Positions 1,725 through 3,563 of a stretch of DNA of 64,000 bases are shown here, piece after piece. The stretch lies in NCBI RefSeq assembly GCF_054482595.1, contig NZ_CM137008.1. One strand, written 5' to 3'. Positions within the stretch are counted from its first letter, which is position 1. Each line of letters begins with the position of its first letter. The notes under the pieces were generated by a model, which worked only from the letters and a program-made list of their open reading frames with translations, was not told where the DNA came from and did not search any database. A program made the translations under genes and the position numbers.

Positions 1725-2227
1725 TTAAATACCTTTATTCTTTATGCGATTAGCTCGCCAACTCGCAGTAAAAATGGGGAAAAGCGCATGTTTATCCTGA
1801 GATTTGGAGCCGAAAAGTGTTTCCGGAGTAAGATTAACAGGCAATATCTCATGTCTGGATTTGTAGATATACGTGGAATTCCAATTGGTATCTTTTGTAG
1901 GATTCAACATATCATGTAAGCGCTGGGAGCTTACCACCATAACTGGCCCATCATCGACAGAGGAGAACAGGATAAAGATATTATCGTTTCGTGTTAATTC
2001 ATTCGTGTTAAAGGTTCTTAAATTATCTTCAATTTCTATAAATAAAGGTGAAACATCATCACTACGAATCCACTCTTTATAAAGATGCCAGGCATTTTCT
2101 TTGATCGTATCATTCGTTGATCGTAGAGCCTGATCGATAAGTTGGATAAAAAAATTGTTATTTTGATTAATCAGCCATTTATTCATATTAAATCTGTTAA
2201 TAAAATCGATCATCTGTTGGGTATCGA
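1725..2227 (-). pseudogene. yjbI: C-terminal fragment of the IS2-disrupted SopA-like pentapeptide-repeat gene
   Basis: Track ORF 1725..2264: its first 13 codons are read out of the IS2 end; from ...DTQQMIDF onward it is in frame with the upstream fragment 3559..4641 once IS2 and one TSD copy are removed. Low GC. Confidence 0.8.
2223..2227. repeat. IS2 target-site duplication, copy 1 (ATCGA)
   Basis: ATCGA directly abuts the IS2 end at 2228 and is repeated at 3559-3563. Confidence 0.85.
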
Positions 2228-2238
2228 TGGATTTGCCC

Positions 2239-3144
2239 CTATATTTCCAGACACCTGTTATCACTTAACCCATTACTGGCTTGCTGCCGTAGATATTCCC
2301 GTGGCGAGCGATAACCCAGTGCACTATGCGGATGCCATTCGTTATAATGCTCGAATGCCTCTGCAAGGTTCTTTGCTGCCGTTAACCCGTCTGGTTTGGG
2401 CATGACACTGATGTAGTCACGCTTTATCGTTTTCACGAAGCTCTCTGCTATGCCGTTACTCTCCGGACTCCGCACCGCCGTGTTCTTCGGTTCAAGCCCC
2501 AACATCCGGGCAAACTGCCGTGTTTCATTAGCCCGGTAGCATGAACCATTATCCGTCAGCCACTCTACTGGAGACGCCGGAAGCTCGTTGCCGAAACGGC
2601 GTTCCACCGCTCCCAGCATGACGTCCTGTACTGTTTCACTGTTGAAGCCGCCCGTAGTGACCGCCCAGTGCAGTGCCTCACGGTCACAGCAGTCCAGCGC
2701 GAACGTGACTCGCAGTTTTTCTCCGTTATCACAGCGGAACTCGAACCCGTCAGAGCACCATCGCTGATTACTTTCTTTCACAGCCACTCTGCCGGTATGT
2801 GCCCGTTTCGATGGCGGTACAGCGGGTTTTCGCTCAAGCAACAGCGCATTCTGGCGCATGATCCGGTAAATACGTTTGGCATTGATCGCAGGCATACCAT
2901 CAAGTTCGGCCTGTCTGCGAAGCAGCGCCCATACCCGACGATAACCATATGTGGGCAGCTCTCCGATAACATGGTGTATACGGAGAAGCACATCCGTATC
3001 ATCTGAGTGACGGCTGCGGCGACCATCTTTCCAGTCATCGGTTCGTCTGAGAATGACGTGCAACTGCGCACGCGACACCCGGAGACAACGGCTGACTAAG
3101 CTTACTCCCCATCCCCGGGCAATAAGGGCGCGTGCGCTATCCAC
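2239..3144 (-). CDS. insD: IS2 transposase OrfB (DDE integrase domain)
   Basis: 301 aa matching IS2 InsD (..[17 protein letters not shown]..); overlaps insC in the frame arrangement typical of IS3-family programmed frameshifting. Confidence 0.95.
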
Positions 3145-3467
3145 TTTTTTGCACGCCCGTATTCAACGGCTTCTTTAAGGAGTTCATTTTCCATCGTTTT
3201 TTTGCCGAGCAGGCGCTGGAGTTCTTTAATCTGCTTCATGGCGGCAGCAAGTTCAGAGGCAGGAACGACCTGTTCTCCTGCGGCCACAGCAGTAAGACTT
3301 CCCTCCTGGTATTGCTTGCGCCAGAGAAATAACTGGCTGGCTGCCACACCGTGTTGCCGGGCAACAAGGGAGACTGTCATTCCCGGTTCAAAACTCTGCT
3401 GAACAATAGCGATCTTTTCCTGTGTAGTACGCCGTCTGCGTTTCTCCGGTCCTAAGACATCAATCAT
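3102..3467 (-). CDS. insC: IS2 OrfA (helix-turn-helix transposase subunit)
   Basis: Track ORF 136 aa; the known InsC start [18 protein letters not shown] is at codon 16, giving a 121-aa product. Confidence 0.9.
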
Positions 3468-3558
3468 CTGCTCTCCAATGACTAGTCTAAAAACTAGTAT
3501 TAAGACTATCACTTAAATAAGTGATATTGGTTGTCTGGAGATTCAGGGGGCCAGTCTA

Positions 3559-3563
3559 ATCGA
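3559..3563. repeat. IS2 target-site duplication, copy 2 (ATCGA)
   Basis: Identical 5-mer to 2223-2227, immediately outside the other IS2 end. Confidence 0.85.

Follow-up and report, generated by a model that had tools for sequence, protein, structure and literature searches.

An IS2 insertion flanked by an ATCGA target-site duplication splits the SopA-family gene yjbI in an Escherichia coli chromosome

The 64,000-nt stretch of contig NZ_CM137008.1 (NCBI RefSeq assembly GCF_054482595.1) analysed here, hereafter the window, contained the malK-lamB-malM / yjbI / ubiCA region of Escherichia coli, reversed relative to K-12. Within yjbI, a gene of the SopA family, lay a complete 1331-bp copy of the insertion sequence (IS) IS2, placed on the minus strand by reading of the sequence and by a script check. 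The element had the same orientation as ubiCA, as the initial annotation had stated, and divided yjbI into a 5′ fragment on the malM side and a 3′ fragment on the ubiC side (Table 1). After malM, a hairpin followed by a T-run is predicted to keep malK-lamB-malM transcription out of yjbI. No RNA family was detected within or beside IS2 by an Rfam scan.

The ends of the element (TGGATTTGCCCC... and ...GGGGGCCAGTCTA) agreed with the termini of K-12 IS2A, and both inverted repeats and both genes, insC and insD, were present, so that the earlier description of a complete IS2 was upheld by the sequence and by comparison with K-12 IS2A. Copies of the 5-mer ATCGA bracketed the element. The repeat was exactly 5 bp long, the sixth base being unlike on the two sides, and two identical flanking 5-mers would be expected by chance about once in 1,000 cases. 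Deletion of positions 2228..3563 by script, which removes IS2 and one ATCGA copy, gave a 1581-nt open reading frame (ORF) of 526 codons that read ...SKMHFDTQQMIDFINRF... across the junction, with SKMHFD followed directly by TQQMIDF in the translation.

The stop codon of the 5′ fragment was a TAG at 3556-3558 on the minus strand, the three bases with which the left end of IS2 opens; the claim that this stop is borrowed from the element was thus accurate. The 3′ fragment had no native start. The ORF listed for it, 1725..2264, opened at a GTG within IS2, and the 13 IS-derived codons previously ascribed to it were a slightly generous count: 12 codons were wholly IS-derived and the 13th had a single IS base.

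Table 1. Positions of IS2, its parts, the yjbI fragments and adjoining features in the window.
Feature	Position	Strand	Basis or remark
Complete IS2 (IS3 family, IS2 group)	2228..3558	-	Sequence reading, K-12 IS2A comparison, 100%-identical copies elsewhere
Target-site duplication copy ATCGA, side of the right inverted repeat (IRR)	2223..2227	.	Single ATCGA in Santai empty site
Target-site duplication copy ATCGA, side of the left inverted repeat (IRL)	3559..3563	.	Single ATCGA in Santai empty site
IRL, 42 bp (TAGACTGGCCCCC...)	3517..3558	-	K-12 comparison; length from PMC3299598
IRR, 41 bp (...GGGGCAAATCCA)	2228..2268	-	K-12 comparison; length from PMC3299598
insC / orfA, 121 amino acids	3102..3467	-	Amino-acid sequence identical to K-12 InsC; NF006928
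insD / orfB, 301 amino acids	2239..3144	-	10 amino-acid substitutions relative to K-12 InsD; NF006918
A AAA AAG -1 frameshift site	3144..3150	-	IS position 409 in window and K-12
yjbI 5′ fragment, codons 1-361; pentapeptide-repeat beta-helix and first half of SopA central domain	3559..4641	-	
yjbI 3′ fragment, codon 362 to stop, plus duplicated Asp codon; without native start	1725..2227	-	
ubiC	1005..1502	-	Context; ATG (1502) 726 nt downstream of IS2 IRR tip
Terminator-like hairpin and T-run after malM	4818..4837	-	Context

The window was compared with 5,426 complete RefSeq E. coli genomes. These included IS-free alleles 99.9% identical to the window flanks. In E. coli O157:H16 strain Santai the locus was annotated as an intact 526-amino-acid (aa) ‘SopA family protein’ (WP_021557422.1), and the reconstructed yjbI differed from the Santai gene by one nucleotide, giving P38L as the only difference between the two products. 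The NF007264 match, PF13981 and the pentapeptide repeats described below were also present in WP_021557422.1, the gene of which is continuous in Santai, whereas the window gene is split after codon 361. The two window flanks overlapped at Santai reference positions 1999-2003, which contain one ATCGA. This single copy in the empty site therefore directly proves both the 5-bp target-site duplication (TSD) and an ancestral ORF that was continuous. The initial annotation had made its in-frame 526-codon reconstruction depend on an IS-free reference allele with an unbroken ORF across the junction, and Santai provides one. K-12 is unsuitable as a reference for this gene because its own yjbI (b4038) is a pseudogene, with frameshifts near codons 64-80 that are unrelated to IS2.

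The insertion is recent: one flank agreed with the intact allele at 100% and the other at 99.9% identity, the TSD was perfect and yjbI showed no second lesion. The source strain was also 100% identical over blocks of 5-10 kb to XH990, Santai and TUM18780, among others. The exact IS2 insertion of the window was found in none of the 5,426 complete genomes, and because of this absence its junction (ATCGA, codon 360/361) cleanly marks the lineage of the source strain.

Relative to K-12 IS2A (NC_000913.3 381260-382590), the element had 59 substitutions and no indels (95.57% identity, 4.4% diverged). Under the ISfinder convention, isoforms of one element share more than about 90% DNA identity or 95% protein identity. 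The window copy had this isoform-level likeness to IS2A at both levels, InsC being 100% and InsD 96.7% identical in amino acids to the K-12 IS2A proteins. The element is thus a widespread and intact IS2 isoform. The insC and insD genes were both intact and overlapped by 43 nt; insC scored 276.4 bits against the NCBIfam model for the IS2 repressor TnpA (NF006928, cut-off 229) and insD 709.7 bits against that for the IS2 transposase TnpB (NF006918, cut-off 597). In IS2 a programmed -1 frameshift at the A6G motif joins orfA and orfB into the transposase (PMC3299598). The window copy shared with IS2A the length of 1331 bp, the termini, the orfA/orfB layout, the position of A6G, the 5-bp duplication and InsC, and differed from it in its 59 substitutions, the 10 InsD changes, an AA to TT change in IRL and a generic RefSeq label.

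The inverted repeats of IS2 are imperfect, with an IRR of 41 bp and an IRL of 42 bp (PMC3299598). Over the first 45 nt of each end, the window copy differed from K-12 IS2A by two substitutions in IRL and one in IRR. The AA to TT change was at IS positions 42-43 (window 3516-3517), on the inner edge of IRL and at the centre of the palindrome CACTTA-NN-TAAGTG, and fell within the reported docking sequence of the OrfA repressor, TAAATAA (PMC3299598).

Of the 5,426 complete genomes, 4,899 had IS2-like sequence, with 24,437 occurrences in all. Copies 100% identical to the window isoform lay at many sites on E. coli chromosomes and plasmids, for which reason the isoform is evidently mobile. RefSeq names it only ‘IS3 family transposase’, and this generic label conceals a common isoform from IS2 counts.

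Reconstructed YjbI matched the NCBIfam model NF007264 (‘SopA family protein’) with 1158.4 bits (cut-off 326), the match covering residues 15-526 and model positions 1-512. Pentapeptide repeats (Pfam PF13599, PF00805) were found at residues 106-253 and the SopA central domain (Pfam PF13981) at residues 293-424 (E 1.6e-48). IS2 cut YjbI at residue 361, within PF13981. The GC content of yjbI was 32%, against 51.6% for the whole window. Comparison with SopA and NleL structures (PDB 2QYU, 2QZA, 3SY2, 3NAW, 3NB2) aligned residues 106-515 to the beta-helix and central regions of these proteins, with E values of 1.6e-12 and 1.6e-10. The alignment ended at about position 434 of 621 in the SopA chain and 405 of 613 in the NleL chain, and YjbI itself stops there. 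The C-terminal portion of SopA and NleL is the catalytic HECT-like C-lobe. Neither the structure-chain alignment nor NF011904, against which YjbI scored 73.9 bits, far under the cut-off of 500, gave YjbI a C-terminal HECT-like lobe with a catalytic cysteine. YjbI thus shares the beta-helix (pentapeptide-like) and central regions of Salmonella SopA and of NleL of enterohaemorrhagic E. coli, whereas the C-terminal catalytic portion is theirs and not YjbI's. Because YjbI ends before this portion, it resembles the scaffold of the SopA/NleL effectors rather than the ligase, and it falls outside the E3-ligase effector family proper.

Full-length IS2 was also found at nine other yjbI sites in 13 of the 5,426 genomes; carriers included S163-2, 14EC007, USMARC-51408, the fox isolate 2016-17-292, E3, 142, PSS-08-1 and N10. 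Each of these alleles had its own 5-bp TSD, and none was at the window's site. The insertion codons were 33, 236, 266, 274, 281, 352, 374 and 458, compared with 360 in the window, and seven of the ten sites fell within about 420 bp. The TSDs (ATCGA, AAATA, CATTT, TTCGT, ACAGC, GAAAT, ATAAC, ATTTT and CTTAC) had no common motif. The nine other copies belonged to several isoforms and differed from the window copy at 23-59 positions; among them the AA to TT change was seen only in the copy common to N10 and 23CRST038. RefSeq flagged five of the nine other alleles additionally as ‘frameshifted’.

Six of the nine other sites had IS2 in the same orientation as the window and three, in four genomes, in the opposite orientation. 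The six same-orientation sites had suggested directional targeting or selection for read-through into ubiCA. A query with the IS flipped brought the split over ten sites to 7:3, which is not significant (two-sided binomial p ~0.34), and the orientation bias was discarded. One hit, H32, which the flipped query aligned in a single piece, was considered as a further case of the same site and rejected, as it maps 24 bp off with the TSD ATTTT. In strain KD602 (NZ_CM145715.1) and in hit H137 the two halves of yjbI were about 285 kb apart, each adjoining IS2, with the TSD lost at the visible junction. This arrangement is characteristic of recombination between IS2 copies that inverted or rearranged the region after insertion at the site seen in the fox isolate.

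A probe with IS1, IS5 and IS3 fragments found IS1 or IS5 in at least 35 genomes within a 6-kb neighbourhood. About 23 of the matches listed carried IS1, 11 of them with yjbI split in two, and one further ambiguous IS1 case was confirmed inside yjbI in the opposite orientation. Overall, at least about 20 genomes had IS1 in yjbI. IS5 was carried by ten of the genomes listed and lay directly ahead of the yjbI start codon, its position being shared by EC6868 and HCP6S3_I1. No IS3 was seen by this probe among the matches listed for the 6-kb neighbourhood. Apart from these, one listed genome had lamB::IS1. These counts, and those of a scan for IS2 from ubiA to yjbE, in which strain 142 was missed, are lower bounds.

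Among the matches listed by that scan, made in both orientations, the sole insertion outside yjbI was lamB::IS2. This copy (NZ_CP099588.1, strain EMG2, 25-2701) was of the canonical K-12 isoform, and four laboratory derivatives of MG1655 had it in common with EMG2. Presumably this laboratory lineage carries it as a lesion conferring lambda resistance; it is selectable rather than neutral because the phage lambda receptor is knocked out. Queries combining region and IS2 in one orientation found no IS2 around xylE-psiE-yjbH and none around iclR-arpA-aceK, though arpA has a GC content of only 33%. No account of yjbI as a target of ISs was found in the literature.

Together, these observations are best read as an ordinary transposition of IS2 into an otherwise intact yjbI, recent and most likely neutral, that left ubiCA essentially unaffected (probability about 90%). 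An active IS2 isoform would have inserted at codon 360/361. By the copy-out/paste-in route of the IS3 family, which we infer for this insertion, a minicircle intermediate would have been followed by staggered 5-bp cuts in the target, giving the perfect ATCGA duplication. A 361-residue N-terminal stump could still be produced from the native start, ending at the TAG of the IS tip, and the 165-codon 3′ remainder would be left without a start of its own. The gene appears to be dispensable because it is frameshifted in K-12 and in other yjbI::IS2 alleles and because IS1, IS2 and IS5 recur there; this AT-rich gene (~32% GC) would thus decay repeatedly in E. coli and collect ISs of several families. 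Some points weigh against this interpretation. Neutrality, although most likely, is read from population patterns, and the placement of IS2 is read from the assembled sequence. From 2228 to the start of ubiC the minus strand showed nothing resembling an intrinsic terminator, and read-through towards ubiC, whether of the IS2 transposase transcript or of one begun at the yjbI promoter, may occur, although nothing supports it.

Relaxed selection on AT-rich DNA accounts best for the accumulation of ISs at yjbI. In the simplest view the gene is a general IS sink: it is dispensable and AT-rich, and it retains insertions of any kind of IS. The sink would not be specific to IS2, because the unrelated IS1 and IS5 accumulate at the same locus. 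A stronger proposal is that the interval from ubiC to malM, and yjbI above all, is a recurrent IS landing pad beyond the effect of relaxed selection, for instance because several transposases are drawn to AT-rich DNA that is presumably coated by H-NS. The contrast between at least ten IS2 sites, many IS1 insertions and one shared IS5 site at yjbI and an almost complete lack of such sites in the ~22 kb of adjoining genes would fit this proposal, which is nonetheless held only tentatively and is less probable than relaxed selection acting without it.

A preference of the IS2 transposase for the sequence or structure of yjbI, in place of relaxed selection, would make the gene an IS2-specific hotspot, and this is unlikely. 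Ten independent IS2 sites in 1.58 kb, their clustering, the single other IS2 site, itself a selectable lamB knockout, in a two-orientation scan of ~22 kb around the gene, and the lack of IS2 from AT-rich arpA in the one orientation tested would all be consistent with such a preference. However, the TSDs shared no motif, IS1 and IS5, from unrelated families, were present at this locus in a still larger number of genomes, and the excess over a rough uniform expectation was only twofold: 19,811 chromosomal copies x 1.58 kb / 5 Mb predicts about 6 IS2 copies in yjbI, and 13 were observed. The hotspot was replaced by the general IS sink after the probe with IS1, IS5 and IS3.

The initial annotation had also raised the possibility of read-through or hybrid-promoter effects on ubiCA, and an adaptive form of this idea is that IS2 raises or alters the expression of ubiCA, either through transcripts that read through or through a fusion promoter formed at the right end of the element. 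The IRR of IS2 bears an outward -35, and fusion promoters arise with a -10 about 17 bp away (PMC9330008, PMC3299598); such promoters are known for ampC (Jaurin & Normark 1983), acrEF and neoR (PMC9330008). The orientation in the window indeed puts the outward -35 of IRR towards the downstream genes (PMC9330008), seven of the ten yjbI::IS2 sites are co-oriented in this way, and the stretch without a terminator-like site leaves nothing of that kind between IS2 and ubiC. The outward -35-like hexamer was taken to be TGGAAA, ending 16 nt from the IRR tip, because with one spacer base TGGAAA pairs with the IRL hexamer TAGACT at 17 bp; abutted IS2 ends would yield TGGAAA-17 nt-TAGACT (Pjunc). The hexamers at 15-19 bp from this -35 were ATCGAT, TCGATA, CGATAC, GATACC and ATACCC, the best of which agreed with TATAAT at three of six positions and lacked the final T, and a consensus promoter scan found no minus-strand promoter across 2228.

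The geometry is like that of the known IS2 fusion promoters, with IRR facing the downstream genes in the same orientation. In those cases, however, a correctly spaced -10 lies at the junction and the gene is immediately downstream, whereas here an acceptable -10 is missing after the IRR tip and the start of ubiC is 726 nt off, with its own upstream region unaltered: the 222-nt yjbI-ubiC spacer was intact, and the spacer and everything downstream were 100% identical to Santai. The 7:3 split between orientations is not significant, and the locus tolerates IS2 and IS1 inserted the other way round as well as IS5 ahead of yjbI. The IS2 promoter PIRL is moreover weak and repressed by OrfA (PMC3299598). 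A hybrid-promoter effect was therefore not borne out, essentially no change in the expression of ubiCA is expected from the sequence, and an adaptive effect through ubiCA is very improbable. That IS2 is here an assembly artefact, a misplaced repeat, is barely credible: IS2 is multicopy and the junction 38-mer had no matches in metagenome contigs (a weak and in itself uninformative point, since IS ends break short-read assemblies), but the sequence is perfect to the base at both junctions, and the canonical 5-bp TSD, which a misassembly would not generate, agrees with the single empty-site copy.

Several other features of the window were recorded. A 6.3-kb block between rluF and pepE (25039-31363) was absent from K-12 and encoded a SorC/DeoR-type regulator, a sorbitol-6-phosphate dehydrogenase, the IIA-IIB-IIC-IID components of a phosphotransferase system of the mannose/fructose/sorbose family and a zinc-dehydrogenase-like ORF; its gene order agreed with the L-sorbose (sor) operon of non-K-12 E. 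coli and Klebsiella. The arpA gene (39100-40320) was a 406-aa ORF without 612 bp of K-12 arpA (nt 1140-1753 of the 728-codon gene), and relatives with 100% identity to it are named ‘ShET2/EspL2 family type III secretion system effector toxin’ in RefSeq. Counting SopA-like yjbI, the window thus had two AT-rich effector-like relic genes within 40 kb. The Clermont phylotyping marker yjaA was absent, about 520 bp of K-12 sequence being replaced by about 110 bp (47289-47400) beside the rrnE 5S gene. The Rfam scan gave four intergenic matches to naRNA4, which is derived from repetitive extragenic palindromic (REP) elements (5949-6019, 10178-10248, 19849-19920 and 42458-42535), the lysC lysine riboswitch (21836-22032), STnc430 (19634-19783) and a complete rrnE-type rRNA operon (47409-52417), all of which accord with expectation for this chromosomal region.

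The element inserted in yjbI is a known one, and the finding, though accurate, is ordinary. Its biological weight is small: a well-characterised element has knocked out a gene that is already non-functional in K-12 and in many wild strains. Only the recurrent accumulation of ISs at yjbI is a mildly new point. The locus shows AT-rich dispensable genes absorbing IS1, IS2 and IS5, and, if the landing-pad reading is true, yjbI would serve as a natural reporter of IS activity and as a typing marker.

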